Shown here piece after piece: positions 3,944 through 20,000 of a stretch of 20,000 nucleotides of DNA. The notes beneath the pieces were generated by a model. It did no database searches. It was not told the DNA's origin and saw nothing but the letters and a program-made list of their open reading frames with translations. Position numbers and translations under genes: made by a program. Numbering within the stretch: the first letter of the stretch is position 1; each line of letters opens with the position of its first letter. The stretch spans positions 60,603 through 80,602 of the forward strand of contig JAQUKH010000001.1 in assembly GCA_028719205.1 (NCBI GenBank). The letters run 5' to 3'. This stretch comes from a bacterium (GTDB lineage Bacteria > JACRDZ01 > JAQUKH01).

Positions 3944-3984
3944 CTCAGTTAATTGATTAGAATAAATTCTTGCGGTATTGTGGT

Positions 3985-4013
3985 TTTATATCATATATTA
4001 TCAAATAAATCAA
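3985..4013 (-). promoter_or_regulatory. Candidate sigma-70 promoter for the reductase/HD-GYP/redoxin/cytochrome block
   Basis: Minus strand TTGATT-N17-TATAAA with a TGn extended -10. The AT-rich background lowers specificity. Confidence 0.4.
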
Positions 4014-4055
4014 ACGAATTATGTTTGTTTTGTAATCACAAATGCCTGTATTTCA

Positions 4056-7000
4056 CTATTTTAATTTCACCATTTGAAATCCAAATTTCTGATAAATATT
4101 ATCCCTGTCAACTGTCGGATGTTGTAAATTTTCACTGATTTTTGGGACTATATCCGATACATATTCCCGCAATTCATCAGTAGATATTATGCCATCATTA
4201 TTTTTATCAGCATCTTTTTGAGTCAGGCTGTTTAATATCGCCTTTGTAAAAAGTCCGTTCTGGTATTCATCTTTTTCGTAGGAGAATTCCCCGCCTCTTG
4301 AGGATGAAAATACAATTGCTCCGGACCTTCTCATCAGGTCATTATAGATGAATCTGTCTTTCTGAAACAAATATTCCCTTGGCGCTGGCGTTATATCTTT
4401 AGCTTCTACTTTTATTCCCCTTGTAGTCCTTGCCTTAAGCCCTCTGCTATCTGCCATAGCATAATATTTATCCTGAATATCCTTGTCAACTTCTCCTGAT
4501 TCACACGCGTCTATAAGAAAGACCTTTTTCCTGGGATTTATGCCCTGCAATATATCTTCTACTGATTCAAAATCTGCCGCTGTATTTTTCAGGTTCTTCA
4601 GTTCTGTCCCGTAAGTTAAATAATAGTAAGTTTCTTCTTCATCTATATCATGTACCCCATGGCCGGCTATAAACAGGATAAAGGTGTCATCAACCTTCGC
4701 GTTCTTCAGAAATTCTTTCGCGTTTTTAATATTTTCTATTGTTACTTCTTCATTAATATAGGTTTTAATGTGAACATTATTAAATCCATTCTTCATTTTT
4801 GCTAAAAGATTGCCTAAGGCCAGAACATCTTTGTGAGCGTATTTGAGATTTATATCTTTATTCTTATATTTGGATATACCAAAACCAATGTAATATAAGT
4901 CACCTTTAACATTTTCTTTATAATCTGCGTATATAAGGGCTCTAAAAGATTCCGCGCCTGCTTCATTTATACAAGTAACCTCAATTTTATTTTTGCCGCT
5001 TGTAAGTTCAACAATCTCTGTTTTACCTATATTGTTACCGGTTATTTCTTTGCCATAGGCACCAAATATAGGGACATCGTTAATATAGATGTTGTAACGC
5101 TTTAGATTGTATTTGTTATCACTTAACTTAAGGCTTAGATTCAGGAATTTACCTTCTTGCTTTGATTCTATTATTTCAGCCAGTGGGACTTGATAATCGC
5201 TCAAGAGTTTTTCTTCAGAAAGTCCCATTTTTCTGAGTCGTTTTTTATACTGCTGATAATAATGGTTTATTAAGGTTTCATTCCCAAGTCCTAAACGTTT
5301 TAAAATAATATCAGGCCGGTTGTTTTTTATGGCGAACTGGTCAACACCATAAGCAGTTAAATCATTTTTTACCATAGCAACAAGATCTCCGCCATTTTTA
5401 GAGGCATCAAAGTAACCATCAGGTGTATACATAATCCATTCATCACTATTTTCAGGGCTGATTAATGAAACGAAATCTCCGGTTTCAATATTCCAGATTT
5501 TGACTGTTCCATCTGAGGATGAAGATACTATTTGCTTACTATCAGGACTAAATGATACACCACAACTTGTACTTTGGTGTCCTTCAAAGCTTTTGATAAG
5601 ATCTCCTTCTATGCTCCATAATGTTATGATCCTGCCAGAAATAGAGACAATATACTTGCCATTAGGGCTAATTTGTATTCTGGAGTTTGAACTATGTTTA
5701 TCTTTAAAACTCTTTATAAGTTTCCCATCGATACTCCATAGTTCTAAAATAAAGTTTGAAATATTACCGGTAGTAGCATCTACGATAATATGTTTCTCAT
5801 CTGGACTAAATGAAAAGCGATTTATTAAACGTCCTGTTGCAATGGTTTTAGTAGATGTTCCATCTAAACTCCACAGTATAATTGCATTAGCATAGGAAAG
5901 AGCGGCAATATATTTTCCATCATGACTAAAAGATACTGATTCTGGAAGATTATACGTTGCTGATCGTTTTCCCTCAAAATCTTCTTCAAAATCCCTTATA
6001 TGTTTTCCATCTATATTCCATAGCTCTACTCTCATCATCCAGGAGTAACCTTTTTCATTAGGAACCTTTCTAGTCGTACCTGCGGCAATATATTTTCCGT
6101 CAGGACTTAACGCCATACCTATAACAGAAACCCCAGTTGTTAAAATTCTAACAAGTTTGCCATCTTTATTCCAGAGCCTTATTGTCCCATCCTCTGATCC
6201 TGAAATAATATAATCATTATCATAACTGAACATCACACAGTAAACTACACCTTTATGCCCTTTAAGTGTTCTAATAAGTTTTCCATCATTACTCCATATT
6301 TTTATCATTGCACCTGCTGCAGACACAATATGCTTTCCGTCACTACTAAAAGCCACATATTTAGATTCAGGGAATATTCCCCCATATGTTCTGATGAGTT
6401 CTCCATCAGTGCTCCAAAGGTTTATGGTATTCGAGGGAAACATTTTACATGCTAAATACTTACCATCCGGACTAAATACTACTGAAGAAGCTCTTGTGTT
6501 CTGGTTAAATGTATTAATAGTTTTTACACGTACCCCGTCTAAATTCCAAATGTTTATTTGTCCCCTCAAATCAATAGAAGCAATATGTTTTCCATCTGGA
6601 CTGAACGATAAAGCATCAGGCTGTTCTTCCCCAAAAGTTTTAATAAGACTTCCATTAACAGCCCATATTTTTATTCTTCCTTCCTTACCTATTGAACAAA
6701 TATACTTTCCATCAGGACTAAACTGTACTATTATGCCTCCACTAGCGCTAACATTAGGCTCTTCCTCAAAAGTTCTTATGAGCTTCCCATCAATAGCCCA
6801 AAGTTTTATTGTTTTATCTCGAGAACCAGAAACAATATATTTCCCATCAGGGCTAAAAGATAAACCAGTAATACTACTAGAATGTCCGATAAATGTTTTA
6901 ATAAATATCCCTTCTAAACTCCACAGTTCCAAAGTATTTTTCCAGGTTGCACATACAACATATTTCTTGTCAGGACTTAATCGCATCACAGCTATATTAG

Positions 7001-7352
7001 AAGGAACTTTTATCGTTTTAATAGGTGTTCCACCAAAATCCCAGATTTGTATTGTTGAAAATCCATCTGTACTAATAATATGTTTATTAAAAATCGAAAC
7101 AAAAGAATTTTGCCCTTTAGAAAATAATGTTTTAATAAGTTTGCCATCTATTCCCCAAAGTTTAATAGTATTATCCTCAGACGAAGAAACAATATATTTT
7201 CCATCAGGACTAAATTCCATACTATTAATTAAATCAGAATGCCCTTTCTGAACAACCATTTCCATATCAGAAACTTTTACAGTATCTATAGAGTAAGCTC
7301 TAGAAATATTAAAAATCAAACCTGCCAGAAAGATTAATATTATTTTTTTCAT
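4056..7352 (-). CDS. Signal-peptide WD40-repeat + caspase-like (peptidase C14) protein
   Basis: Signal peptide MKKIILIFLAGLIFNISRAYS. About 14 WD40 repeats (GH..., FSPDGKYI.S.S.D.TIKLW), a linker and beta-rich domain, then C14 dyad motifs FIAGHG (His 4659-4661) and IDACESG (Cys 4503-4505), NGLFT, and D.NNDG tail. Confidence 0.93.
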   Translation of the reverse strand: MKKIILIFLAGLIFNISRAYSIDTVKVSDMEMVVQKGHSDLINSMEFSPDGKYIVSSSEDNTIKLWGIDGKLIKTLFSKGQNSFVSIFNKHIISTDGFSTIQIWDFGGTPIKTIKVPSNIAVMRLSPDKKYVVCATWKNTLELWSLEGIFIKTFIGHSSSITGLSFSPDGKYIVSGSRDKTIKLWAIDGKLIRTFEEEPNVSASGGIIVQFSPDGKYICSIGKEGRIKIWAVNGSLIKTFGEEQPDALSFSPDGKHIASIDLRGQINIWNLDGVRVKTINTFNQNTRASSVVFSPDGKYLACKMFPSNTINLWSTDGELIRTYGGIFPESKYVAFSSDGKHIVSAAGAMIKIWSNDGKLIRTLKGHKGVVYCVMFSYDNDYIISGSEDGTIRLWNKDGKLVRILTTGVSVIGMALSPDGKYIAAGTTRKVPNEKGYSWMMRVELWNIDGKHIRDFEEDFEGKRSATYNLPESVSFSHDGKYIAALSYANAIILWSLDGTSTKTIATGRLINRFSFSPDEKHIIVDATTGNISNFILELWSIDGKLIKSFKDKHSSNSRIQISPNGKYIVSISGRIITLWSIEGDLIKSFEGHQSTSCGVSFSPDSKQIVSSSSDGTVKIWNIETGDFVSLISPENSDEWIMYTPDGYFDASKNGGDLVAMVKNDLTAYGVDQFAIKNNRPDIILKRLGLGNETLINHYYQQYKKRLRKMGLSEEKLLSDYQVPLAEIIESKQEGKFLNLSLKLSDNKYNLKRYNIYINDVPIFGAYGKEITGNNIGKTEIVELTSGKNKIEVTCINEAGAESFRALIYADYKENVKGDLYYIGFGISKYKNKDINLKYAHKDVLALGNLLAKMKNGFNNVHIKTYINEEVTIENIKNAKEFLKNAKVDDTFILFIAGHGVHDIDEEETYYYLTYGTELKNLKNTAADFESVEDILQGINPRKKVFLIDACESGEVDKDIQDKYYAMADSRGLKARTTRGIKVEAKDITPAPREYLFQKDRFIYNDLMRRSGAIVFSSSRGGEFSYEKDEYQNGLFTKAILNSLTQKDADKNNDGIISTDELREYVSDIVPKISENLQHPTVDRDNIYQKFGFQMVKLK

Positions 7353-7403
7353 TATCTTTTCCCAAATGAATTTAATATATTTTAATTACTTCTTTTCTTT
7401 TAT

Positions 7404-10400
7404 CTAATTCGGATCCCCTATTGACACAAAACCGCCCCAATAGAAAGGATTGGGATTCTTTTCTTTTATCTTAAGTTTTGCTTCTCTTAAGGCCTCAGCC
7501 TTACCCTTACCATCCGCCATGCGTTTATAAAATTCTATCATCAGGTCTTTCGTTTCCTCATCAGGCACTTTCCACAGGCTCATTACTAAAGTTTTAGCCC
7601 CCGCGAGAATAAATGCACGCTTAAGGCCAAACACACCTTCTCCTTTTTTAACCTCTCCTACCCCTGTATCACAAGCTGATAAGACAACAAGCTCTGTTCC
7701 CCTCAAGTTAAGCCCGCTTATTTTTTCCGCTACTACAATCCCCTTATCCCTGCCTGAATTAAGAGACGTATTTGCGCCTGATAACGCAATCCCTGAACGC
7801 AGCATAGGATTTCCTATACTTTGGCTTTCTTTATTAACTTTATCTTCTATAATTAATATATTTCTCATTTCTTCACCTGATAAACCTCTTGTATTTTCAG
7901 GATCATTTTTAGTCATCATATCCATCATCTCATCCGTAAGAAAAAAACCATGTGAGGCAATATGAAGTATTTTTGGATTTTTGTTATTCATCAAAACACC
8001 TTCTAAAGCCTGATCACCCAGAAATAATTTAGGTTCTTTTCCATATTTTTCTTTAAGAATATTCCTTATCACCTCCCCTTCCACCCTTGTCCCTGTAAGC
8101 CTTCCAAAATTTATCCCCCTCATCTCTCTGGAAAACTGTAGATTCTCTTTCCCCCCTGCATCTAATTTTGCTAAAAGCATTTCCTTTTTATCAGTACCAA
8201 GATCAAAATCAGGGTCAGCCATTATTATCATTTCATTATTTGACGGCTCATTTTTAGCTGTAAAGCGCATTATGTCTCTTCCCGCAGTGATATAATTAAA
8301 CTGGTATTGGTCGAGAAGATATTTTCCATCTGAAGAAATAAGGACTTCGAAAGGAATAAAGTTCAGATTGCCCTCCGGGCTGATAAAGATATTCTTCCCT
8401 TCACCGAGATAATCTTTAAGAGAAGCAAATATTTTATTGTAAAGTTTCTTTGCTATTTCATCCCGCCCCTTTTTAGATTCTTTTAAGACGCTTTCAATCC
8501 TTATATCCCTTAATTCTCTACTCTCCGAAACATTAGTCTTTCTTGTTCTTTCTTCTTCGTCTACTATCCCTTTAGCTTTTATCCGGTATTCCTCAATAAT
8601 TTTATTGATATTATCAGCTTTGCCAAGATCCACAAAACCTACAGGTCTCCGCTCATCTGATGAAAGAATAAATGCCAGATAATGTGCATCTTCAAATTTC
8701 CTATCTTTGAAATTATAAAATTCAGGGCAGACAAATTCTATAAGATAAGATCCTTTTGGAAGCAATTTTGCTATACTTTTACTATCTATTTGCCCAATTC
8801 TTTTTTCTAAGGCATAAGTTTTACTCATTGTACTCAATTTTGACTCTATCTTTTCCTTTTCTTCATCAAGAATGGAGAGTTTCTCTTTACCTTTCTTGTT
8901 ATCCATTTTTGCTGAGCTGGAGAAAGTAAGCCTGGTAATCTCTCCTTTTATTTCAATCAACCTTTTATAATCATTAATTATCATAGGATCGTTCGTATCG
9001 GAAATAAGCTCTTCATATCTTGACTGCGACTCTGTCACTATTCCCTTCCACTGAAGCCATTCATCAAGCCCGTCTCTTACAGAATTAATATCTTTAGATT
9101 GATATTGCGCGATATGACTAAAAAAATAATTCATCTCGGAATTTGTAGCGGAAATATAAGCTATTTTCTGCCTCTCGGAAAACAGACTGAATATATTATC
9201 TATATTCTTCATTCTTATATTTATTCCTAACATAAAATTAGTATGGGCGAGTTTGTGTTTCTCTGTTGAAACATAAAATAACGCTAAATTATTATAACCT
9301 TTTATTGAAACAGGATCCTCCTTCAAAGTCTGTTTATTGAGGAGTTCCGACTCTGTGTTACGGCCTGTTCTATTAGAAAGCAAAGACAGATTATCAAGCC
9401 TCGCTAACACTTCACTTCTTGGACTCAAGTTGTTTAATACTGGATCATCCTTATAAATCTCTAAAGACTGCAAATAGAGCTGTTCTGCTTCAGAATAACG
9501 TTTTGTCGTTTCATAGAGCAAGGCCAGATTTTTAAGACTCCTTAACAAATGAAATTCACAATATGTGGGATCATACTTGCCTAATATTTTATCACTCTCA
9601 CGAATCTCTAAACACCGCACATAGAGAGGTTCTGCTTCTGCATAACGGCCTGTTTTCATATAAAATCCAGCCAGATTGTCAAGGCTTTCAGCAATAGCTA
9701 TGTGATCCTTTCCTGATCTTTTATCACGAATCTTTAAGGATCGCACATAGAGCTGCTCTGCCTCTGAATAACGGCTCATTTTTTCATAATATCCAGCTAG
9801 ATCATCGAGTATTTTTACAAGATCATTGTAATAATCGTGATGTGTTGTATAAGGATCTATATAACCATCTCTTGGAAATTTCTCCTTCATCTCTAAAGCC
9901 CATTTCCCGTATTCTATTGCTTTTTCATATTGCCCAGAAGCATAGAAGTCTTCTGCTTTTCCAACAATGCCCCATATATCATAATACTTTTTACCATCAG
10001 GGCCATTGTCATATGCATCTTTTTCCTCATCATTTGACGGTTCATATTTTCCCAAGCTTCTTAAAGCTTTAACTACTACCGACTGTATTTCTTTATCTTT
10101 TATTTTATTTCTAAGAGGCTGAACAGCTCTTTTATCTTGTATATAACCTAAAATACAGGCCGAATATGCCCTTATATCCAAATCACTGTTGTCTAAAGCA
10201 ATTATTAATTTTTCAACTGCTGGAATACCTATTTGTAATAATGATAGAGCTACTGCATTTCTGACAGACGAATCTTCATTATTTAGTTTAGTAATGAGCA
10301 GATCAATCGGTAAATTATTTATTCCTCCAAAATATGCTCTAACAGCTGTCAGGATTTCATCATCCTCATCACTAAATCGGGTAATCAAGTAATCTCTGGA

Positions 10401-11588
10401 TTTATTATCGTTTATTTTACAGAGGGCTTTTATTGCTTCAGCACGGATATTCTCTCTCTGATAATAACCTGTACGTTTTTTTTCATTTTCAACTATATAT
10501 ATAAGATGATCTACAGCTCGATTGTCAACGATTTCACCTAAAGTCTTTACTACACCATATTTGACAGCTATCTCTCCATCATAAATCATTTTTAATAATT
10601 GAGGAACTGCTTCTTTTCCAATTTTCACACATCCATTCCAGTCTCTTTTAGCTATCAAAAAAGATATTTTATCATTAATATCCGCAAATTCATGTTTATC
10701 TAATATTTCTGCTGTTATTTCTCTTATACGATAATCTTTATCCTTTAACTTTCTTATAAATGGTTCAACTGTTAAATTACTTATTAAAACTAATGGTTCT
10801 ATTGTTTTATCTCTGTATCTTTCATCGTTTAATTTATTTAAAAGTGGATTAATCGCAGGTTCGCCTATTTTAACGATGGCATTTTTAGCTTCTGTACTCA
10901 CATCGCTGTTTTTATCTATCAGTAATGAAATTAATGGCTCTACCGCCTTACTATCTCCGATATTCCCTAAAGCTATGGCGGCATCTGCGCGGACATCTGC
11001 AGATTCATCTTTAAGGACATTTATAAGAAAATCTACCGCCCATTTATCCTTTATTTCTCCTAACGCGTAAGCCGCTTCGCATCGGACATCACTATTTTCA
11101 TCCTGAAGCGCGGTTATAAGGGCTTCCACCGCCTTAGGGCTTTTTATTTTACCCAAGGCTTCCGCCGCCCTCCACTTTATTTCACTATTATTGATTTTAA
11201 TTTCATAAAGAAGCGAGTCTACCGCGTCAACATATCCGATTTCGCCTAAAGCCTTTATTGCTAATTTATGATTATTGAGGTTACTGTCTTTTAAAGCGTT
11301 GATCAATGGTGGGATTGCTTTATTATTCTTAATTTTTCCTAACGCTTCGATTGCTTTTAAACGAACAAAAGAATGCTTATCATTTAACACTTCAATTAAG
11401 AATTCGACCGCTGAGGCATCTTTACTTTCACCTAACGCTTCAACGGCTTTTGAACGGATAGACCAATTTGCGTCTTTTAATTGTTCAATTAATATTTTAG
11501 TGTCAATTTGGGATCGCGCGGTTATCGGATGGGAAAAGATTACAATTGAAATAATAATGAAAAGTATTTTTTGTTTTCCTTTTATCAT
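7404..11588 (-). CDS. Signal-peptide HEAT-repeat + TPR + CHAT protease (paralog B)
   Basis: N-terminal hydrophobic signal, PBS-lyase-type HEAT repeats, kinesin-light-chain-type TPRs (Y.EAE.LY.RSL.I), and CHAT motifs ISPEGNLNFIPFE, HIASHGFF (His 7950-7952), VLSACDTG (Cys 7671-7673), MSLWKV.D, PFYWGGF. ATG at 11588 with AGGA RBS is preferred over TTG at 11594. Confidence 0.92.
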   Translation of the reverse strand: MIKGKQKILFIIISIVIFSHPITARSQIDTKILIEQLKDANWSIRSKAVEALGESKDASAVEFLIEVLNDKHSFVRLKAIEALGKIKNNKAIPPLINALKDSNLNNHKLAIKALGEIGYVDAVDSLLYEIKINNSEIKWRAAEALGKIKSPKAVEALITALQDENSDVRCEAAYALGEIKDKWAVDFLINVLKDESADVRADAAIALGNIGDSKAVEPLISLLIDKNSDVSTEAKNAIVKIGEPAINPLLNKLNDERYRDKTIEPLVLISNLTVEPFIRKLKDKDYRIREITAEILDKHEFADINDKISFLIAKRDWNGCVKIGKEAVPQLLKMIYDGEIAVKYGVVKTLGEIVDNRAVDHLIYIVENEKKRTGYYQRENIRAEAIKALCKINDNKSRDYLITRFSDEDDEILTAVRAYFGGINNLPIDLLITKLNNEDSSVRNAVALSLLQIGIPAVEKLIIALDNSDLDIRAYSACILGYIQDKRAVQPLRNKIKDKEIQSVVVKALRSLGKYEPSNDEEKDAYDNGPDGKKYYDIWGIVGKAEDFYASGQYEKAIEYGKWALEMKEKFPRDGYIDPYTTHHDYYNDLVKILDDLAGYYEKMSRYSEAEQLYVRSLKIRDKRSGKDHIAIAESLDNLAGFYMKTGRYAEAEPLYVRCLEIRESDKILGKYDPTYCEFHLLRSLKNLALLYETTKRYSEAEQLYLQSLEIYKDDPVLNNLSPRSEVLARLDNLSLLSNRTGRNTESELLNKQTLKEDPVSIKGYNNLALFYVSTEKHKLAHTNFMLGINIRMKNIDNIFSLFSERQKIAYISATNSEMNYFFSHIAQYQSKDINSVRDGLDEWLQWKGIVTESQSRYEELISDTNDPMIINDYKRLIEIKGEITRLTFSSSAKMDNKKGKEKLSILDEEKEKIESKLSTMSKTYALEKRIGQIDSKSIAKLLPKGSYLIEFVCPEFYNFKDRKFEDAHYLAFILSSDERRPVGFVDLGKADNINKIIEEYRIKAKGIVDEEERTRKTNVSESRELRDIRIESVLKESKKGRDEIAKKLYNKIFASLKDYLGEGKNIFISPEGNLNFIPFEVLISSDGKYLLDQYQFNYITAGRDIMRFTAKNEPSNNEMIIMADPDFDLGTDKKEMLLAKLDAGGKENLQFSREMRGINFGRLTGTRVEGEVIRNILKEKYGKEPKLFLGDQALEGVLMNNKNPKILHIASHGFFLTDEMMDMMTKNDPENTRGLSGEEMRNILIIEDKVNKESQSIGNPMLRSGIALSGANTSLNSGRDKGIVVAEKISGLNLRGTELVVLSACDTGVGEVKKGEGVFGLKRAFILAGAKTLVMSLWKVPDEETKDLMIEFYKRMADGKGKAEALREAKLKIKEKNPNPFYWGGFVSIGDPN

Positions 11589-11641
11589 AATCAATTCCTA
11601 ATTTTATCCAGCATATTTAATTACTGCCTGATTTATTTGGT

Positions 11642-14600
11642 CTAATCCGGATTTCCTATGGAAACAAAACCTCCCCAGTAAAAAGGATTGGGATTTTTTT
11701 CTTTTATCTTAAGTTTTGCTTCTCTTAATGCCACAGCTTTACTTTTGCCATCCGACATGCGTTTATAAAATTCTATCATCAGGTCTTTTGTTTCCTCATC
11801 AGGCACTTTCCACAAACTCATTACCAACGTCTTTGCTCCTGCAAGGATGAAGGCACGCTTAAGACCGAACACTCCCTCTCCTTTTTTAACTTCTCCGACA
11901 CCTGTATCGCAGGCTGACAATACAACAAGCTCTGTTCCTCTTAATCTAAGCCCGCTTATTTTTTCCGCTACGACAATTCCTTTATCCCTGCCCAAGTTAA
12001 GGGATGTATTTGCTCCAGCTAACGCAATCCCTGAACGCAGCATTGGGTTTCCTATGCTTGGACGTTCTTTATTAACCTTATCCTCTATTATTGATATATT
12101 TCTTATTTCTTCATCTGACAAACCTCTTGTACTATCCTGAGAACTACTTGTAAGCATATCCATCATCTCATCTGTAAGAAAAAATCCATGTGAGGCGATA
12201 TGAAGTATTTTTGGATTTTTATTATTCATCAAAACACCTTCTAAAGCCTGATCACCCAGAAATAATTTAGGTTCTTTTTCATATTTTTCTTTGAGAATTT
12301 TGCTTATGGCTTCTCCTTCCTCCCTTGTTCCAGATAGCCTTCCAAAATTTACCCCTCTCATCTCTCTGGAAAACTGTAAATTTTCTTTCTCCCCTACATC
12401 TAATTTGGCTAAAACTATTTCTTTTTTATCTGTTCCAAGGTCAAAATCAGGATCAGCCATTACTACAATTTCATTATTAGTAGAATCATTTTCTGCGTTA
12501 AAACGCATTATATCTCTTCCCGCAGTTATATAGTTGAATTGGTATTCATCTATAAGGTATTTCCCATCTGATGAAATGAGAACTTCAAAAGGAATAAAAT
12601 TTAGATTGCCCTCAGGGCTGATAAAGATATTCTTCCCTTCTCCGAGAAAATCTTTAAGAGGAGCAAATATATTATTATAGAGTTTCTTTGAAATTTCATC
12701 ACGGCTGTTTTTAGATATTTTTAGAGCACCTTCTATTTTTATATCCCTGTTCACTGAAACATCCTTATTACTGGCATTTTCTTCTTCATCCACAATCCAT
12801 TTAGCCTTTGTCCGATACTCCTCGATCAATTTATTAATATTATCAGCCTTCCCAATATCTATTAAACCTACAGGCTTCCCTTCATCCGAAGAAAGAATAA
12901 ATGCCAGATAATGTGGGTCTCCCATTTTTCTATCTGTGAAACTATAAAAATCAGGGCAGGCAAACTCTATCAGATATGATCCTTTGGGAAGCATTTTTGC
13001 AATACTTTTACTATCAATCTTTCCGATCCTTTTCTCTAAGGCATAGGTTTTACTCATTGTACTCAATCTTGACTCAATATTCTCTTTTTCTTTCTCCAAA
13101 ACAGAAAGCTTTTCTTTATACTCTTTATCATTTATTTTTCCTAAATCGGAAAATGTAAGTTTTACTATCTCATTTTTTACTTCAATCAATTTATTAAAAT
13201 CAATAATTACTTTTGGATCATTTGAATCAGAAAGAAGCTCCTCATACCTTGACTGCGACTCTGTCACTATTCCTTTCCACTGAAGCCAGATATCAAGCCC
13301 GTCTTTTACAAAATTAATATCTTCAGATTGAAACTGAGCAATATGGCTTAGAAAACAATTCATTTCTGAATTTACAGTGGAAATATAATCTATTTTCTGT
13401 CTCTCGGAATACTTGATAAATATATTGTCTATATTCTTTTTTCTTACATTTATTGCTGAAATAAAATTGGAATGAGCAAGTGTATGTTTTCCTGTTGATC
13501 CATAAAATAACGCTAAATTATTTATATATTTTGCAATATTTGGATTATTATTTCCTAAAGGTAATCCCATAATATTCAGATACTCCAAATAGAGCGGTTC
13601 TAATTTTTGATATCGGCCGGTTTTTTCATAAATAAATACCAGATTGTCAAGCATACTTATAGTTTTTTCACCTAAAGATGAAGAACTTGCCCAACCATTA
13701 ATGATTTTATCCAAATATATATTTATAGCCTTAATATAAAACGGTTCTGCTTCTTTATATTTACCAGTCATAAAGTAAATATCAGCCAAATTAATTAAGA
13801 TTTGAGATAAATCAAATGCAGCCGAACGCTTTTGAATGAACGAACTTCCAAAAGTTATTTTTTCACTATTAATATTATTGGCACCTAAATATTTCTCCAA
13901 AATATCTATAACCTTTTTTTCATGCGATATTGCTTCCTCATATTTCCCATCATTAAAAAGTATTTTAGCTTGCTGATACATTTTTTTAGCTTCCTCAATT
14001 CCTGTTGTATCTGGAAGATAACACTCTGCTTTTTCTTCATCATTTGACGGTATCCATTTCAACTTAGCTAGAGCATCAACAACTAACTTACGATTATCAA
14101 TGTTTTTATCCTTTAATATTTCAATTAACGGTTGAACAGCACTAGTATCTCCTATATCCCCCAAAGCTGAAACTGCACAAGACTTTACCTGACTCTTTTC
14201 ATCTTTTATTTTTTTAATAAGCGGCTGAACAGCCCTTCTATCTTTTATCTGACCCAAAATGTTGGCTGCGCTTTCACGAATACACCAATCACTATCATCT
14301 AAAACAATAATCAATTTTTCTACAGACTGGACACCATATTTTATTAAAGAATTACTCGCTTCTTTGCGGATATTTATATTCTCATCTTTGAGTTTAGTAA
14401 TGAGTATATCAATCGGGGGATTAGTTGTTTCTTCTGATAATAATTTTATAGCAATTAGTCTGATATCAGAATCATCATGGTTAATTTGACTAATAAGAAA
14501 ATCCTTAGTTTTATTATCATTTATATCATAAAGGGCATTTGCTGCTTTTTTTCGAAATACATAATCACCTTGTTTAACTAAATCTATAAGATAATTTATA

Positions 14601-17524
14601 GACCAGCTATTACCAATTTTTCCCAAAGCTTCTACTGCTCTAATTTTCATCTTAAAATTCTTATTATTAATTATATTTACTGCTGATTCGCCAAGACTTG
14701 CGTATTTATCCCACTCTTTTTTTGCCACATAGTATGAAACTTTATCTTCAATACTTTCTGGAACCCAACCCAGTTTAGCTAAAGCATTTGCAGCATCAGA
14801 AGATATAGAAACAAATTCATGATCAAGCGCGAGAATAAGGGGTTCTAATTTTAGTTCATTAATAGGCGGTTTTACTGCTGAGTTGGCGCCAACATTACCA
14901 ATAGCTTGTATTAATACATTATTATCAAATCTGTTCCCACTATTTTTAAATATTGCAAGCAGCGGTTCAAGTACGCTAATATCTCCTATTTCACCCAACG
15001 AATTTAATGCCGCCAAATTAACATAATAAGTTTCATGACTATATAATAAATCTAACAACGGTTTAACTGCCGGTTTACCTGCTTTGACAAATATTTTAGT
15101 TGCATTATAATGTTCTATCTTGTTCTCTCGGAGAGCCTTTATAGTAGGAACGATAGCTTCTTCTCCCATTTTTACCAACGCATCAATTGCTTCCATATAT
15201 TTTGATTTTTCATATACAGATAAAAAAGGTTGTATTGCTCTTATGTCACCTATTTCACTCAAAGCCTTTATCGCTGCAATACTAATATCCCTGTTTTCAT
15301 CATTAAGCATTTTTATAAGCTGTGGGACTGCTTCTTTACCAATTTTTACACATTCATTCCAACTTCTTTTCGCGATCAATATAGTTATTTTTTCATTAAT
15401 ATCCTTAGGTTCATATTTTAATTTAATTAATATATCTGCCGCTATTTCCCTTAAACGATAATCTTTATCATTTAGTTTTTTTATTAGCGGTTCTGCTTTC
15501 GAATTACCTATGTTAACTAATAATTCTATTGCCTTATTACTGAATCTATCATCGTTTAATTTTTTTACCAGCAGCTCAATCGCAGGCTCACCTATTTTGA
15601 CAATGGCATTTTTGGCTTCTGCAATAACTTCGTTATTTTTATCTGTCAATAACGATATTAACGGTTCAACAGCTTTACCATCTCCAATATTTCCTAAAGC
15701 GATAGCGGCCTCTATACGAACATTTTCATATTCATCCTTGAGAACATTAATAAGAAAATCTATAGTCTGTTTATCCTTTATTTCTCCTAGCATATAAGCC
15801 GCCTCGCTTCGTACATCGCTATTTTCATCCTGAAGCGCGGTTATAAGAGCTTCCACGTCCTTAGAACTTTTTATTTTATCCAAAGCTTCCTTCTTTCTGG
15901 ATTTTTTGCTTTTGTTTATAAGAAAATCTATATCCAGGCCATCACTATTTTCGTGTAAAATCTTTATTACACTAACTCGAATTTCTGGTTTCTTTTTTTT
16001 AAGCGAATCAATCAATTCTTCTACTGCCGGCTGTCCTATTTTTAATAAAACAATAGTTATCTGTCTATAATTCTTTTCATTTATTTTATTTATTAATAAA
16101 TTTACAGCTGTTTCCCCAAGATTTACACATTTATCCCATTCTTCTTTTACTACATAATATGAAGCTTTTTCATCAATACTTTCAGGTACCCACCCAATTT
16201 TACCTAATGCCAGTGCTGCTGTTTTTTTAACATTATCATTTTCATCATCTAATAATAATATTAGTGATTCAGCAGCAGGTTCACCTATTTTGATAAATAT
16301 TCTGGACGCATCTTCATCAGATAATATGCCTTTTCTGAAAGCAATTATACTTGGTTGTAAAGCTTCCATTCCTATTTTCCCTAACGCGTCTGCTACTTCT
16401 TTATGTGTTGAATTATCATATATAGAAAGAAGCGGTTTTATAGCCCTGCTGTCGCCTATTTCACCTAAAGCTTCAATTACAACACCGGCATTTTTATAAT
16501 TAAGCATATTAATTAATAGAAGTACTCCTTCATCACTCATTTTTGCGCAACCATTCCAATCTCTTTTTGATAGCATAAACAATAACTTTTCATTAATATT
16601 ATCCGGTTCATATTTTAATTTAATTAATATATCTACAGCTTTTTTCACTATACTATAATCTTTTTCATTTAACTTTATCCGTAAAGACTCTATGGTTGAG
16701 TTACCTATTAAAATTAATGATTCAATTACTTTATCAGAGAATTTATCATCATTTAATTTATCTATTAGCAGATTAATTGCAGGTTCACCTATTTTAACTA
16801 GGGCTGTTTTAGCTTCCAAACTTACATCGCTGTTTTGATCTATCAGTAATGGAATTAACGGCGCTACTGCTTTACTGTCTCCAACATTCCCCAAAGCAGT
16901 AGCAGCATCACGGCGAACATTTTCAGATTCATCTTTAAGAGCATTTATAAGTAAATCCTCTGCCGATTTAACCTTCATTTCTCCTAAAGCGTATGCCGCT
17001 TCGCTTCGAACATCGCTATTTTCATCCTGAAGCGCGCTTATAAGGGCTTCCATGGCCTTAGAGCTTTTTATTTTCCCCAGGGCTTCCACAGCTCTCCATT
17101 TTATTTCACTATCATTGCTTTTAAATTCAGAAAGAAGAATATCTACTGCTTCAATATCTCCGATTTCACCTAAAGCCTCTATTGCCGCCTTATGATTATT
17201 AAGATTACTGTCTTTTAAAGCGTTGACCAATGGTTGGACTGCTTTCTTATCCGTAATTTTCCCTAACGCTTCAATTGATTTTAACCGCACAAATGGATGC
17301 TTATCATTTAACGCTTCAATTAAAATATCTACGACTGAAGCGTCTTTACTTTCTCCTAATGCTTCAACGGCTTTCGAACGGATAGACCAATTTGCGTCTT
17401 TTAATTGTTCAATTAATACTTTTGTACCGACTTGTGATTGAGCCATAATCAGATTGCAAAAGATTACAAATAAATATAGAGTTAAAAACAATAGTATTCT
17501 TTTCTTTTCGATTATTATTATCAT
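11642..17524 (-). CDS. Signal-peptide HEAT-repeat + TPR + CHAT protease (paralog A, with internal HEAT duplication)
   Basis: Same architecture as 7404-11588. CHAT His at 12188-12190 and Cys at 11909-11911. The N-terminal and CHAT regions are visibly highly similar to paralog B at both protein and DNA level. Confidence 0.92.
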   Translation of the reverse strand: MIIIIEKKRILLFLTLYLFVIFCNLIMAQSQVGTKVLIEQLKDANWSIRSKAVEALGESKDASVVDILIEALNDKHPFVRLKSIEALGKITDKKAVQPLVNALKDSNLNNHKAAIEALGEIGDIEAVDILLSEFKSNDSEIKWRAVEALGKIKSSKAMEALISALQDENSDVRSEAAYALGEMKVKSAEDLLINALKDESENVRRDAATALGNVGDSKAVAPLIPLLIDQNSDVSLEAKTALVKIGEPAINLLIDKLNDDKFSDKVIESLILIGNSTIESLRIKLNEKDYSIVKKAVDILIKLKYEPDNINEKLLFMLSKRDWNGCAKMSDEGVLLLINMLNYKNAGVVIEALGEIGDSRAIKPLLSIYDNSTHKEVADALGKIGMEALQPSIIAFRKGILSDEDASRIFIKIGEPAAESLILLLDDENDNVKKTAALALGKIGWVPESIDEKASYYVVKEEWDKCVNLGETAVNLLINKINEKNYRQITIVLLKIGQPAVEELIDSLKKKKPEIRVSVIKILHENSDGLDIDFLINKSKKSRKKEALDKIKSSKDVEALITALQDENSDVRSEAAYMLGEIKDKQTIDFLINVLKDEYENVRIEAAIALGNIGDGKAVEPLISLLTDKNNEVIAEAKNAIVKIGEPAIELLVKKLNDDRFSNKAIELLVNIGNSKAEPLIKKLNDKDYRLREIAADILIKLKYEPKDINEKITILIAKRSWNECVKIGKEAVPQLIKMLNDENRDISIAAIKALSEIGDIRAIQPFLSVYEKSKYMEAIDALVKMGEEAIVPTIKALRENKIEHYNATKIFVKAGKPAVKPLLDLLYSHETYYVNLAALNSLGEIGDISVLEPLLAIFKNSGNRFDNNVLIQAIGNVGANSAVKPPINELKLEPLILALDHEFVSISSDAANALAKLGWVPESIEDKVSYYVAKKEWDKYASLGESAVNIINNKNFKMKIRAVEALGKIGNSWSINYLIDLVKQGDYVFRKKAANALYDINDNKTKDFLISQINHDDSDIRLIAIKLLSEETTNPPIDILITKLKDENINIRKEASNSLIKYGVQSVEKLIIVLDDSDWCIRESAANILGQIKDRRAVQPLIKKIKDEKSQVKSCAVSALGDIGDTSAVQPLIEILKDKNIDNRKLVVDALAKLKWIPSNDEEKAECYLPDTTGIEEAKKMYQQAKILFNDGKYEEAISHEKKVIDILEKYLGANNINSEKITFGSSFIQKRSAAFDLSQILINLADIYFMTGKYKEAEPFYIKAINIYLDKIINGWASSSSLGEKTISMLDNLVFIYEKTGRYQKLEPLYLEYLNIMGLPLGNNNPNIAKYINNLALFYGSTGKHTLAHSNFISAINVRKKNIDNIFIKYSERQKIDYISTVNSEMNCFLSHIAQFQSEDINFVKDGLDIWLQWKGIVTESQSRYEELLSDSNDPKVIIDFNKLIEVKNEIVKLTFSDLGKINDKEYKEKLSVLEKEKENIESRLSTMSKTYALEKRIGKIDSKSIAKMLPKGSYLIEFACPDFYSFTDRKMGDPHYLAFILSSDEGKPVGLIDIGKADNINKLIEEYRTKAKWIVDEEENASNKDVSVNRDIKIEGALKISKNSRDEISKKLYNNIFAPLKDFLGEGKNIFISPEGNLNFIPFEVLISSDGKYLIDEYQFNYITAGRDIMRFNAENDSTNNEIVVMADPDFDLGTDKKEIVLAKLDVGEKENLQFSREMRGVNFGRLSGTREEGEAISKILKEKYEKEPKLFLGDQALEGVLMNNKNPKILHIASHGFFLTDEMMDMLTSSSQDSTRGLSDEEIRNISIIEDKVNKERPSIGNPMLRSGIALAGANTSLNLGRDKGIVVAEKISGLRLRGTELVVLSACDTGVGEVKKGEGVFGLKRAFILAGAKTLVMSLWKVPDEETKDLMIEFYKRMSDGKSKAVALREAKLKIKEKNPNPFYWGGFVSIGNPD
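14660..17090 (-). repeat. Intragenic tandem duplication of a HEAT-repeat block (about 17090-16090 and 15890-14660)
   Basis: Both copies run from KIKSSK..EALI.ALQDENSDVRSEAAY to GWVPESI..K.SYYV.K.EWDK...LGE.AVN. Shared DNA ctattttcatcctgaagcgcg occurs at about 17016, 15818 and 11091. Confidence 0.85.
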
Positions 17525-17637
17525 CTGTTTTCTCTTTTATTTCTGTTTAGATCTGTTCTGAATTTTATAACCAATGTTCTTAGTTTTTTGTTATGTACTC
17601 TATATTTTATGCAAAACCTATTATACACGATGTATGA

Positions 17638-17697
17638 TTTCAAAAAACGGTTAATTTTTGAAATACAGAAATTTCTGTATTAATAGATTTTTCTATT
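17638..17697. promoter_or_regulatory. Cluster of operator-like palindromes upstream of CHAT paralog A
   Basis: TTTCAAAAA-N8-TTTTTGAAA (17638-17663), perfect 20-bp palindrome AATACAGAAATTTCTGTATT (17662-17681), and AATAGA-TTTT-TCTATT (17682-17697). A minus-strand TATAAT lies at 17620-17625. Confidence 0.45.
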
Positions 17698-17713
17698 TCT
17701 TTTACATTTACAA

Positions 17714-17917
17714 CTAATATTCTACATAATCTAATGGCAATTCAGACCATATAATAAAGAACAAAACAATTCCTATCGAAAGACTGATAATTCCTCCGAT
17801 TAATATATTTCTATACTCTATGGTTTTCATTCCTAAACAGCTAAGTGTTATCCATAAACCTATTATAATATTCATAATATTCAAGATCACTAATATTCCA
17901 TTCTTTTCCTTTTTCAT
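17714..17917 (-). CDS. Small 2-TM membrane protein (weakly SPW-repeat-like)
   Basis: AAGGAG RBS about 8 nt before the ATG. Two hydrophobic helices. The N...GLW...S / N...G pattern resembles SPW repeats but lacks PW. Confidence 0.65.
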   Translation of the reverse strand: MKKEKNGILVILNIMNIIIGLWITLSCLGMKTIEYRNILIGGIISLSIGIVLFFIIWSELPLDYVEY

Positions 17918-17953
17918 TCTTTTTTCTCCTTTTTTTAGTCTGGTTTTTAAAAT

Positions 17954-18073
17954 AAGCGTTCAGTACACAGCTCTCAGCATTCGGCCAGAATCAGGGGGAG
18001 GGAAACCCTTGATCCTTTTGGATTTTATAATCTTTAATTATTAAGATAGCTAATTGCTGGTGACTGAACGCTT
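17954..18073 (-). ncRNA. Candidate structured leader or small RNA closed by an 11-bp perfect inverted repeat
   Basis: AAGCGTTCAGT (17954-17964) pairs with ACTGAACGCTT (18063-18073), extendable with bulges, and encloses internal hairpins. It begins about 6 nt after the predicted sigma-54 start site. No family recognised. Confidence 0.4.
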
Positions 18074-18089
18074 CTGCATATAATTAATA

Positions 18090-18105
18090 TGCAAGACTCA
18101 TGCCA
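18090..18105 (-). promoter_or_regulatory. Sigma-54 (-24/-12) promoter
   Basis: Minus strand TGGCATGAGTCTTGCA matches TGGCAC-N5-TTGCW with exact GG-N10-GC spacing. It is intergenic and points toward the small ORF and the CHAT genes. Confidence 0.75.
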
Positions 18106-18232
18106 TAGACTAAACAAAAAAAGTGTTTTTTGCGGAAATAGCGCTAACTAGCTATAAACATTGACTATATATTTTTTCAGTTTTTTATTAGGATTTTTCA
18201 GAGGGTTTTAACTATTTTAACTTTGCGGAATG

Positions 18233-18270
18233 ATGCATGGAAAACCATGCATATATTTGATTCCATGCAT
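18233..18270. promoter_or_regulatory. Candidate enhancer (UAS) for a sigma-54 activator
   Basis: Perfect inverted repeat ATGCATGG-AAAA-CCATGCAT (18233-18252) plus a further CCATGCAT (18263-18270). It sits about 130-165 bp upstream of the -24 box, across an AT-rich spacer. Confidence 0.55.
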
Positions 18271-18342
18271 TAATTGTAGACGAGTAATCACTCTCAGCAA
18301 TCGGCAACGAAACGTACACATCTTTTGACAATCCATCCCACT

Positions 18343-20000
18343 TTACTTCATAACTTTTACCATTCCCAGAATTTCTGAATCGGAAAGTACACGATTGTAA
18401 ATACGGACATCGTCAATTAGACCAGAGAAATTATAAGTTCCTGTCGTACCATTATAGGTTCCTATATATAACGACACAGGGTAACTCAAGTCAGCCGCCT
18501 GTGCTTGTGAAACAATTTGTCTGCCATCTATATAAACTCTTACCATAGAATCATCATATATCCCCGTAATATGATGCCAATTAGTATCCCAAACAAAGGT
18601 TCCAATCGTCCACTTGTTTCCACCCACCCACATTGCTGGTTGATTAGCAACACCACTCAAATTCACAGCCATTGCATAACCCTGATTATAATAATTTGGA
18701 TTATACTTTTGAATAATAAACTTATAATCTTTTGTATCGGATAATTTAATCCAAGCCGAAATAGTAATATTTTTTGGGTTTAAAACCGCATTATCTGCCA
18801 CACTTATATAATCATCTTTCCCATTAAAGCTATACGCACTATTTTCATTACCAAATCTGTCTGTTGTTAATGTCGCCCCATGGACAACCCCATTATTTCC
18901 GTTCCCGCTTTCATCATTTGCGTTGCCGTTAAATGGATAGTAGGCGACTAATCCTCCAGATTTTTCATTGTTATAAAGATCATTAATTTCAGAATCAGAA
19001 AGTGCATAATTATAAATACGGACATCATCAATAGTTCCATTAAAATAACTCATCATCAAACTGCCATCAAACCAACTTCCTAAAGTTATCATACTTTCGC
19101 CGGATAATGGTGCCGCAGTCGATGTTTTACTAGATTCAAGAACGCCATTTATATATAATTTCTGCAATTTATTCGGATAATCCATAACAGCTGTAATATA
19201 ATACCATTGTCCATTTACAAAATTCTTTTTTGAAGTAACAGGTGTTCTATCTCTTTCATCGCACAATCCTTGTCCATCAGCAAGGAATGCCATTCTGTTT
19301 TGAGAAGAATATTCACTTCCAAAACCTAAATAAACATCTTCGCAAGGCGTTTGATCAGCCACTATAAATAAAGTCTGTCCTCTCCCATTTGAAATCCCAG
19401 TTGGAACACTCAACGGCTTAATCCACATGGACCAAGTATGTCCACTATTCGCATTTCCAATAGCAAATGAATTTTTTCCATAATTAATATAATTATCCAT
19501 ACCGTTAAAATTATATGCGCTATTTTCATTACCAAATCTATCTGTTGTTAATGTCGCCCCATAAACAGTTCCATTATTCCCGTTACCGCTTTCATCATCA
19601 GCATTCCCATTGAAAGGATAATATGCAACTAATCCGGAATTTTCTTTTTGTTGTGATTCTATCTGTTTTATCTTATCTTTTCCAAAATTAATAGATTTTT
19701 CCTTCTCTCTGGTTTCTTTTTCAATTGCTGCAATTTCTAACCGAAGAGATTCCGCTTTTTGCTTTTCATTAATATCTTTTTCTTGCAATTCCATCTGTTT
19801 CAGTTTATCTTTTTGTACCTTAAGTTCTTCCTCTAATTTTAAGCTTGTTTGCTCTGGTTGAGAATCAGAAGGCGATATAAAGACAAACTCTCCGCCCTCA
19901 GATCCCGGTAAGCTGCCAAATTCCGGCGTTTGCTCAGCTATTTCAGCTACTTTTGGCTGTATGTAGGCATTTATTTCTGAAGCAGTGATTATGCCATCGC
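18343..20000 (-). CDS. Caspase-like (C14) domain tail + coiled coil + two LamG/concanavalin-like domains (5' end off window)
   Basis: The frame stays open upstream of 19794 to the window edge: DGIITASEINAYIQPKVAEIAEQTPEFGSLPGSEGGEFVF, a typical C-terminus of bacterial C14 domains. An E/K-rich coil follows, then 2x GLVAYYPFNGNA.DESGNGNNG...F.G.IDDVRIYN..LS.SEI. Confidence 0.85.
   Translation of the reverse strand, partial: DGIITASEINAYIQPKVAEIAEQTPEFGSLPGSEGGEFVFISPSDSQPEQTSLKLEEELKVQKDKLKQMELQEKDINEKQKAESLRLEIAAIEKETREKEKSINFGKDKIKQIESQQKENSGLVAYYPFNGNADDESGNGNNGTVYGATLTTDRFGNENSAYNFNGMDNYINYGKNSFAIGNANSGHTWSMWIKPLSVPTGISNGRGQTLFIVADQTPCEDVYLGFGSEYSSQNRMAFLADGQGLCDERDRTPVTSKKNFVNGQWYYITAVMDYPNKLQKLYINGVLESSKTSTAAPLSGESMITLGSWFDGSLMMSYFNGTIDDVRIYNYALSDSEINDLYNNEKSGGLVAYYPFNGNANDESGNGNNGVVHGATLTTDRFGNENSAYSFNGKDDYISVADNAVLNPKNITISAWIKLSDTKDYKFIIQKYNPNYYNQGYAMAVNLSGVANQPAMWVGGNKWTIGTFVWDTNWHHITGIYDDSMVRVYIDGRQIVSQAQAADLSYPVSLYIGTYNGTTGTYNFSGLIDDVRIYNRVLSDSEILGMVKVMK
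18839..19562. repeat. Near-identical DNA repeat at the starts of the two LamG domains
   Basis: 18839-18881 and 19520-19562 match at 42 of 43 nt (offset 681). Confidence 0.85.

Follow-up and report, generated by a model that had tools for sequence, protein, structure and literature searches.

This study concerns a 20,000-nucleotide stretch of bacterial DNA (hereafter the window; G000:C1:60603-80602, where G000 is the 2.59-Mb source genome) and the 35.5-kb genomic island to which most of it belongs. The island encodes seven caspase-fold (clan CD) proteases of two families, C14 and CHAT, together with a single sigma-54 activator carrying a CHASE2 domain. The protease genes of the window make up the distal third of the island; the window covers its distal operon as well as the final gene of the operon next to it. 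The evidence moderately favors the view that this island is a self-contained, envelope-directed protease regulon, whose separately targeted proteases would work in parallel and not as a cascade.

All sizeable open reading frames (ORFs) of the window are carried by the minus strand. Four of them are co-oriented clan CD genes whose products contain WD40, HEAT plus TPR (twice), and LamG repeats, an arrangement that had been proposed in a preliminary description of this stretch and is confirmed by the ORFs and by Pfam searches. In the WD40-C14 protein, 11 or more blade signatures are recognizable in the WD40 region (E value of 5e-74) within residues 47-601, and Peptidase_C14 (PF00656) scores 59.5 bits against a Pfam cut-off of 21.4. 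The two CHAT paralogues (A and B) score 228.7 and 232.6 bits for the CHAT domain (PF12770; Pfam cut-off 24), and both also carry HEAT_2/HEAT_PBS and TPR_12/TPR_10 domains. In paralogue A, whose start codon is either TTG at position 11594 or ATG six bases downstream, a signal-peptide-like start is followed by a PBS-lyase-type HEAT array, TPRs, a helical pre-CHAT block, and the CHAT protease. Only the ~45 last residues of the caspase domain of the fourth protein are encoded inside the window; when the sequence beyond position 20000 was read, as had been recommended, the gene was completed as a C14-LamGx2 protein of 794 amino acids (aa), which starts 727 bp past the window end and has a Peptidase_C14 score of 61.7 bits (same cut-off). 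The cluster of four genes is therefore real, but its size had been understated because three more exported C14 genes are located upstream of the window. No nucleoside triphosphatase (NTPase) domain of the NACHT or NB-ARC type was detected by Pfam in WD40-C14 or in either CHAT paralogue.

Sequence alignments indicate that all of these proteases retain their catalytic residues, as the preliminary description had noted for the three complete genes. The C14 catalytic His (AGHG; xGHG) and Cys (DAC; DxCxSG) are invariant in all five C14 domains of the island and in 45/45 sequences once relatives from other phyla are included, and H455 and C548 (numbering of the C-terminal 636 aa of paralogue A) are invariant in 41/41 CHAT sequences. 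A profile built from the five island C14 domains aligns these motifs to those of AtMC4, Yca1, metacaspase-9, and MALT1. Two further C14 positions, the Asp of KYAxxD and an Asp at position -2 relative to the Cys, are invariant in both the five and the 45 sequences, and we take them to be the acidic S1-pocket residues of metacaspases. Because of these two Asp positions, the C14 proteases are predicted to cleave after Arg or Lys. The roles of metacaspase S1-pocket residues are supported by a passage of PMC6426788. In addition, all island C14 domains contain an EF-hand-like DxNxDGxIxxxE loop near the domain end (window 4059-4200 in WD40-C14), which is the majority state in the 45 sequences and is a possible Ca2+ switch that would favor activity outside the cytoplasm.

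Single-sequence searches of the PDB with the CHAT and C14 domains returned no match at E <= 0.01, and matches were obtained only with profiles and predicted folds. For the C14 domain of WD40-C14, the AlphaFold model (md28cae1f47b4) has a predicted local distance difference test (pLDDT) score of 80. Its best folds are GSU0716 (3bij), followed by metacaspase-9/4, MALT1, and caspases, with E values of 1e-10 to 1e-6 for 3bij, 8a53, MALT1, and caspases; as modelled, this C14 domain has the caspase-haemoglobinase fold. For CHAT, the model of the C-terminal 636 aa of paralogue A (me5078aeafa09; pLDDT 83) best matches Craspase TPR-CHAT/Csx29 (7xsq_B, E value of 4.9e-12; TM-score ~0.4, 14% identity), followed by separases and then by the periplasmic domain of DdvA (8rot_A, E value of 2e-6). 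Weak matches include SAVED-CHAT (8tl0_B, E value of 1.8e-3) and gingipains (ranks 44-50).

Export was judged by our own signal-peptide rules. The strict rule requires a tripartite signal peptide or a lipobox, whereas the loose rule is laxer. The N-termini of all seven island proteases show the n/h/c organization of signal peptides: a few basic residues, then a hydrophobic segment, and finally a site with small residues. Of these proteases, 6/7 pass the strict rule, compared with a background of 240/1142 (21%) ORFs of at least 300 aa in the same genome. Thus, the earlier claim that the proteases are exported holds up on sequence grounds, and the seven proteins are very probably extracytoplasmic. 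The only failing protease, C14-RicinB, fails at position -3 alone (Asp), and its N-terminus is paralogous to those that pass. Among all 17 island ORFs examined, 13 pass; the other failures are the 67-aa membrane ORF, a FlgO-like gene whose first start is placed 10 codons too far upstream, and a DUF4062-HATPase_c_4 protein, which is the sole clearly cytoplasmic protein of the island. A KdsB-like gene adjoins the island, which suggests that the host is a lipopolysaccharide-bearing diderm, and hence the periplasm would be the default destination. We also checked eight other HEAT-repeat ORFs of this genome by eye (G000 C9:60826, C2:99328, C2:103920, C12:49507, C44:7967, C23:43287, C1:182405, and C1:191228), and all eight have signal-peptide-like starts. 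Extracytoplasmic HEAT arrays therefore seem to be normal for this organism; exported HEAT proteins of the PBS-lyase type seem to form a family present across the lineage, which is likely the donor of the HEAT arrays of the CHAT proteins.

The island (G000:C1:64546-100041) is present in G000 and absent from the same site in the congeneric genome G001. It is flanked on one side by a FAD-dependent oxidoreductase gene (window 2867-3943) and on the other by a gene encoding a 286-aa protein and then pyrG. In G001 the flank orthologues are adjacent with tRNA-Val(CAC) between them, and the distance from the FAD-oxidoreductase gene to the 3' end of this tRNA gene is ~150 bp, versus 35.5 kb in G000, where tRNA-Val(CAC) borders the island on the side away from the FAD-oxidoreductase gene, its 3' end pointing inward. 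The locus is thus a tRNA-associated island that is present or absent at a conserved chromosomal site. It contains all clan CD genes found in the source genome, namely five C14 genes (the fifth found by hmmscan alone), two CHAT genes, and one CHAT relic, and no match to PF00656 or PF12770 was found in G001 (98% complete) or in a second congeneric genome, G002 (92% complete). Upstream of the window, the island encodes, in order, C14-RicinB, a DUF4384 lipoprotein, an SLT lytic transglycosylase, two small exported proteins, an LPP20-like (LPP20/FlgP-like) lipoprotein, the cytoplasmic DUF4062-HATPase_c_4 protein, C14-Lcl_C, two FlgO/CsgG-like proteins, a 486-aa C14 protein, and a 928-aa activator consisting of CHASE2, transmembrane, and sigma-54 interaction regions. 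The DUF4062-HATPase_c_4-Fic-like_C gene (L006:10674-12176) lies between two of the sigma-54 operons; in PADLOC, pAgo-associated and SIR2-PNTD models match it weakly (E values ~1e-10), and it may be a separately inserted defence-type gene.

Putative regulatory elements link the window to the rest of the island. Three pairs of a sigma-54 type promoter and a palindrome were detected in the island, one in the window (Table 1) and two upstream, with centre-to-centre distances of 144, 153, and 164 bp. The exact palindrome has two copies in the whole genome, plus one copy with 3 mismatches, and all three are in the island; three of the six exact TGGCAY-N5-TTGCA sites in the genome are also there. The activator at the far island end combines CHASE2 with an AAA+ sigma-54 interaction domain, and rpoN is present in the source genome, so that a promoter, an upstream site, an enhancer-binding protein, and the sigma factor of a candidate sigma-54 regulon were all found. 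The palindrome is the predicted binding site of this activator. The 67-aa ORF that follows the window promoter is separated by 189 bp from the three large genes, which have gaps of 47 and 51 bp between them, and we infer that the 67-aa ORF, the two CHAT genes, and WD40-C14 form one four-gene operon. Since the promoter-palindrome pair of the window matches the two upstream pairs, this operon would belong to the same predicted regulon and would be controlled by the same activator as the two upstream operons.

Table 1. Genes, putative regulatory elements, and island border in the window (window positions).
Feature	Position	Strand	Description
Left (downstream) island border	3944..4055		In G001, the FAD-oxidoreductase gene is followed directly by tRNA-Val
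WD40-C14 gene	4056..7352	-	1098 aa; signal-peptide-like start, WD40, beta-sandwich linker, C-terminal Peptidase_C14 (Pfam, model)
HEAT-TPR-CHAT paralogue A	7404..11594	-	1396 aa; Pfam and predicted model
HEAT-TPR-CHAT paralogue B	11642..17524	-	1960 aa; plan of paralogue A, HEAT module multiplied by internal duplication
67-aa ORF	17714..17917	-	Two hydrophobic segments, good ribosome-binding site; first ORF past the putative sigma-54 promoter
Putative sigma-54 type promoter TGGCAT-N5-TTGCA (TGGCATGAGTCTTGCA)	18091..18106	-	174 bp upstream of the 67-aa ORF
Perfect 8-N4-8 palindrome ATGCATGG-N4-CCATGCAT	18233..18252		~144 bp upstream of the promoter (centres)
C14-LamGx2 gene, 3' part	18343..20000	-	Open at the window end; end of caspase domain, coiled-coil linker, two Laminin_G_3

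Comparison of the proteases with one another reveals paralogy and rearrangement within the island. Three C14 paralogues have cores that are 83-85% identical and tails that are different. The CHAT modules of the two CHAT paralogues are 80-84% identical, and the HEAT arrays have been rebuilt; identity is 84% for the CHAT domain, 72% for the helical block before it, and 77% for the first HEAT block. The matches of paralogue B to paralogue A are of 80%, 65%, and 60%, and the DNA of paralogue B contains repeats D1, D3, D4, and D5. The ratio of nonsynonymous to synonymous substitution rates (dN/dS) between A and B is 0.10-0.22, which indicates purifying selection, and therefore both CHAT paralogues have been kept functional since duplication. 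A relic of a CHAT C-terminus (76 residues with one TAA stop, 88% identical to paralogue A) is located between C14-LamG and C14-RicinB at G000:C1:81360-81587 (L006:2758-2985) and testifies to an earlier rearrangement of the protease genes. Each CHAT gene ends in a segment that runs on into the flanking downstream DNA (window 7375-7674 and 11613-11912), and these two segments are 83% identical. Moreover, public contigs identical to the window break exactly at the repeats of the CHAT paralogues, and assemblies of such pairs therefore deserve care.

We then examined relatives of both protease families and their distribution in other genomes. Scanning of species genomes with the C14 alignment yielded 79 loci from many phyla; neighboring genes were searched by single-sequence tblastn, which is insensitive, and the loci are phylogenetically non-independent. 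By the loose rule applied to any in-frame start (background 47%), 91/94 C14 genes in these loci are signal-peptide-like, and four more are 5'-truncated. WD40 repeats are encoded just upstream on the same strand in 26/79 loci, indicating that signal peptide-WD40-C14 is a recurrent architecture, and at least two C14 genes are present in 12/79. The genes detected near C14 relatives were CHASE2 (10/79 loci), DUF4384 (6/79), and CHAT (2/79; L089 and L092), whereas LPP20 and CsgG-like queries gave no match in the 79 loci, a search in which tblastn is insensitive to small lipoproteins. In locus L069, an orthologue of the CHASE2-sigma54 activator (55% identity) is accompanied by a sigma-54 promoter, DUF4384, and an exported C14. 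Among seven CHASE2 proteins beside C14 genes that were scanned, the output domain is SpoIIE in five, a cyclase in one, and the sigma-54 activator in one. CHASE2-SpoIIE (PP2C phosphatase) membrane proteins adjoin ~660-aa exported C14 lipoproteins in five loci from Desulfobacterota and other metagenome-assembled genomes (L052, L058, L063, L065, and L097), a recurrent pairing; in L063, four or five C14 genes of this kind follow one another. In L092 (2129-9500, from a Nitrospiraceae metagenome-assembled genome), three co-oriented genes encode a signal/transmembrane-WD40-C14 protein (887 aa), a CHAT protein (1197 aa), and an exported DUF4384-like protein.

The CHAT family is much larger, with 103,656 representative clusters at E <= 1e-3. 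Among the best 150 relatives, 131 start with Met, of which 46 pass the strict rule (versus the 21% background) and 59 pass the loose rule (versus a background of 433/1142). TPRs were found in all 38 full-length aligned relatives, and HEAT is not among the 25 commonest families, suggesting that HEAT+TPR+CHAT is unusual in this sample. At E <= 1e-40, CHAT relatives were detected in 10/300 other genomes, and in the 2.9-20 kb available per locus no C14 gene was found near any of these 10 CHAT loci, while a CHASE2 match was found near one (L120). In this unrelated genome (G278:C77), tandem TPR-CHAT genes with nearly identical signal peptides (8568-9662 and 13485-14213) have the CHASE2 match ~3.5 kb upstream, which parallels the tandem CHAT pair and CHASE2 of the island. 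Taken together, the association of exported C14 with CHASE2 and DUF4384 recurs in different genomes, whereas that of C14 with CHAT is nearly unique to the island. The survey of neighborhoods had been set beforehand as a test of whether the two families are co-located elsewhere, and such co-location largely fails.

On these grounds, one may picture the regulon as follows. The extracytoplasmic CHASE2 domain of the membrane-bound activator would sense a signal from outside and the AAA+ domain would provide the output; the activator would bind the recurring palindrome upstream of the three sigma-54 promoters, so that one outside signal could turn on the three operons together. Their Sec-exported products would comprise five C14 and two CHAT proteases, lipoproteins (LPP20/FlgP-like, FlgO/CsgG-like, and DUF4384), and the lytic transglycosylase. 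Each protease would combine a conserved catalytic core with its own binding module (WD40, HEAT+TPR, LamG, ricin-B, or Lcl_C), and the proteases would act in parallel, each on its own target, in the periplasm or on the envelope. Parallel action is favored because a constant core is joined to variable tails, no NTPase or adaptor domain is present, and the C14-CHAT pairing is poorly conserved. The lytic transglycosylase and the FlgO/LPP20-like lipoproteins of the island place the action in the envelope. The job would most likely be inducible, target-specific cleavage of envelope or foreign proteins, in remodelling, defence, or conflict. That each protease has different repeat domains, as had been described, is evident; their proposed role as ligand sensors is only one reading because no protease has an NTPase switch, and the repeats could equally be substrate-recruiting or anchoring modules.

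Several observations weigh against this regulon of parallel proteases. Promoters and operons are predicted from motifs and spacing. The loose export rule is passed by 433/1142 (38%) ORFs of the source genome at the first start and by 532/1142 (47%) at any early in-frame start. PADLOC returned only generic HEAT and caspase matches on the island, and the locus is thus not filed under any catalogued defence system. With regard to the mode of movement, no integrase was found among the island ORFs by Pfam, and no copy of the tRNA-Val end (25 nt) was found in the window at <=3 mismatches. Finally, since the pairing of CHAT with C14 is near-unique, the two families may co-occur without working together.

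One of the closest characterized systems is DdvA, an anti-sigma factor of Myxococcus xanthus, whose periplasmic TPR-CHAT domain has been proposed as a site-1 protease (PMC11506125). The premise of the preliminary description that characterized CHAT/caspase systems are cytoplasmic was therefore incomplete. DdvA and the island CHATs share an extracytoplasmic CHAT domain with a His/Cys dyad placed after helical repeats, in line with the fold match to 8rot_A. However, DdvA has a transmembrane anchor, a cytoplasmic zinc anti-sigma domain, and an extracytoplasmic function (ECF) sigma partner, whereas the island CHATs start with a signal peptide followed by a HEAT array, form a tandem pair, and are predicted to be produced under the control of a sigma-54 activator instead of providing its input; no ECF sigma or anti-sigma gene was found in the island by Pfam. 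By analogy with DdvA, the exported proteases might act upstream of the CHASE2 sensor, either by clipping it or by generating a peptide that it binds; envelope proteolysis would then be the signal, and the regulon would be subject to its own feedback. We assign a small probability to this hypothesis. It would fit the presence of CHASE2 beside exported C14 genes and near one CHAT locus, as well as a C14-CHASE2 fusion on record (PMC3501461). However, the loci concerned are not phylogenetically independent, several being from related Desulfobacterota metagenome-assembled genomes, seven proteases with lectin tails exceed the needs of a signalling step, and the island lacks the sigma and anti-sigma genes mentioned above. 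A complex prediction for the CHASE2 periplasmic domain (35-382) with a C14 domain (27-320) gave a score of 0.00, which weighs neither way.

Gingipains and clostripain, which are exported clan CD proteases with adhesin domains, offer a working analogy. They resemble the island proteins as extracellular caspase-fold cysteine proteases joined to binding domains, but they belong to families C25 and C11, use other secretion routes, and gave no Pfam match here. It seems improbable that the island encodes foraging or surface exoproteases of this kind, i.e., Arg/Lys-specific enzymes held by adhesin or lectin modules that digest external proteins for nutrition. The lectin-type tails (LamG, ricin-B, and Lcl_C), the two invariant S1-pocket Asp positions, the weak fold matches of the CHAT model to gingipains, and the source of the genome, a landfill metagenome according to the run label, would agree with such a role. 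However, Pfam searches of the island revealed neither a dedicated secretion system nor a sorting signal, nor any genes for peptide or amino-acid uptake; the WD40, HEAT, and TPR modules suggest that particular proteins are bound, and the lytic transglycosylase and FlgO/LPP20-like lipoproteins point to the inside of the envelope.

A more speculative possibility, which we consider just as doubtful as foraging, is a periplasmic caspase programme triggered through CHASE2 and sigma-54. An outside cue (phage, predator, or kin damage) would lead to flooding of the envelope with a murein-cutting enzyme and the seven proteases, whose diversifying lectin, WD40, and HEAT modules would be receptors for foreign or damaged-self envelope structures, and either the invader would be destroyed or regulated self-lysis would follow, with the proteases possibly feeding back on the CHASE2 sensor. 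If true, caspase-based immunity and cell death would have a counterpart outside the cytoplasm, one that works without an NTPase switch. The extracytoplasmic cascade that had been proposed, in which recognition of a ligand by a repeat domain would set off stepwise cleavage and activation of one protease by another, is quite unlikely: nothing found here bears on it directly, and although seven clan CD proteases of two families fall in one predicted regulon, the CHAT model has a disordered 40-residue His-Cys loop (462-501, pLDDT <50) that may be a processing site, and genes for exported WD40-C14 and exported CHAT proteins are neighbors in L089 and L092, the two families are rarely co-located and both absent from G001 and G002, no NTPase or adaptor domains are available to build a hierarchy, and the C14 paralogues are recent duplicates with one core and swapped tails, which suggests parallel targeting.

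The regulon of parallel proteases was also compared with other known systems. Csx29 of Craspase shares the TPR-plus-CHAT plan and the dyad and is the best structural match of the 636-aa module; however, it is cytoplasmic, Cas7-11-bound, and RNA-activated, and no Cas domains were found by Pfam in the 16 larger island ORFs, a search that did not extend to CRISPR arrays. With respect to SAVED-CHAT of CBASS, the island has no SAVED or CD-NTase domain and no match to a PADLOC CBASS model. The C14 proteins resemble metacaspases and orthocaspases (C14B: AtMC4, AtMC9, and Yca1) and GSU0716 in profile, fold, His-Gly and Asp-x-Cys motifs, and the two Asp residues, but differ in being exported, fused to lectin or WD40 modules, and equipped with the EF-hand-like loop. 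Cytoplasmic STAND-type (signal transduction ATPases with numerous domains) caspase-NACHT-WD40 and CHAT/caspase conflict systems (PMC3501461; PMC8195603) likewise join caspase-fold proteases to WD40 or TPR arrays. The island proteins, in contrast, have N-terminal repeats (the reverse order) and signal peptides, and lack the central NTPase of such NLR-like (nucleotide-binding, leucine-rich repeat) proteins. As in NtrC-type enhancer-binding proteins, the predicted control involves -24/-12 promoters, a palindrome ~145-165 bp upstream, and an AAA+ sigma-54 domain, but the input of the island activator is a membrane-embedded CHASE2 and not a receiver domain. N-terminal transmembrane or signal segments on ~15% of prokaryotic C14 proteins, with a possible extracellular role, were noted in 2012 (PMC3501461), and it was proposed in 2019 that cyanobacterial pseudo-orthocaspases carry a TAT-like signal (PMC6426788). 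In literature searches that covered few subscription journals, we found no characterized member of the exported C14 subfamily, no paper with the term CHASE2 on its combination with sigma-54 or enhancer-binding proteins, and none that deals with HEAT-TPR-CHAT proteins, with proteases controlled through CHASE2-sigma54, or with a locus of several exported caspases, in agreement with the initial statement that no characterized system with this combination is known.

Regarding the remaining genes of the window, the 67-aa ORF has no Pfam or PADLOC match and its best atlas neighbor (0.84) is unconvincing; a holin-like role was considered and dropped, as nothing supports it. Outside the island, the window contains genes for an exported AhpC/TSA-TPR fusion (478-1704) and a multi-transmembrane HD_5 (HD-GYP-like) protein (1730-2851), both conserved in G001 and adjoined by a multihaem cytochrome gene (3-569).

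Bacterial caspase-fold proteases have been studied almost only as cytoplasmic effectors of death and immunity, yet nearly all of the C14 relatives collected here, and about one third of the nearest CHAT relatives, look exported. Exported C14 and TPR-CHAT proteins are widespread, and a periplasmic TPR-CHAT, that of DdvA, has already been characterized. The island is a compact entry point to these proteins, in which a single sensor-activator and three matching promoters accompany seven proteases whose targeting modules are swappable. As the host is uncultured, its study would be heterologous. Such work on the island could help to ask what the substrates of exported caspases are, what CHASE2 domains sense, and whether the two are functionally coupled.

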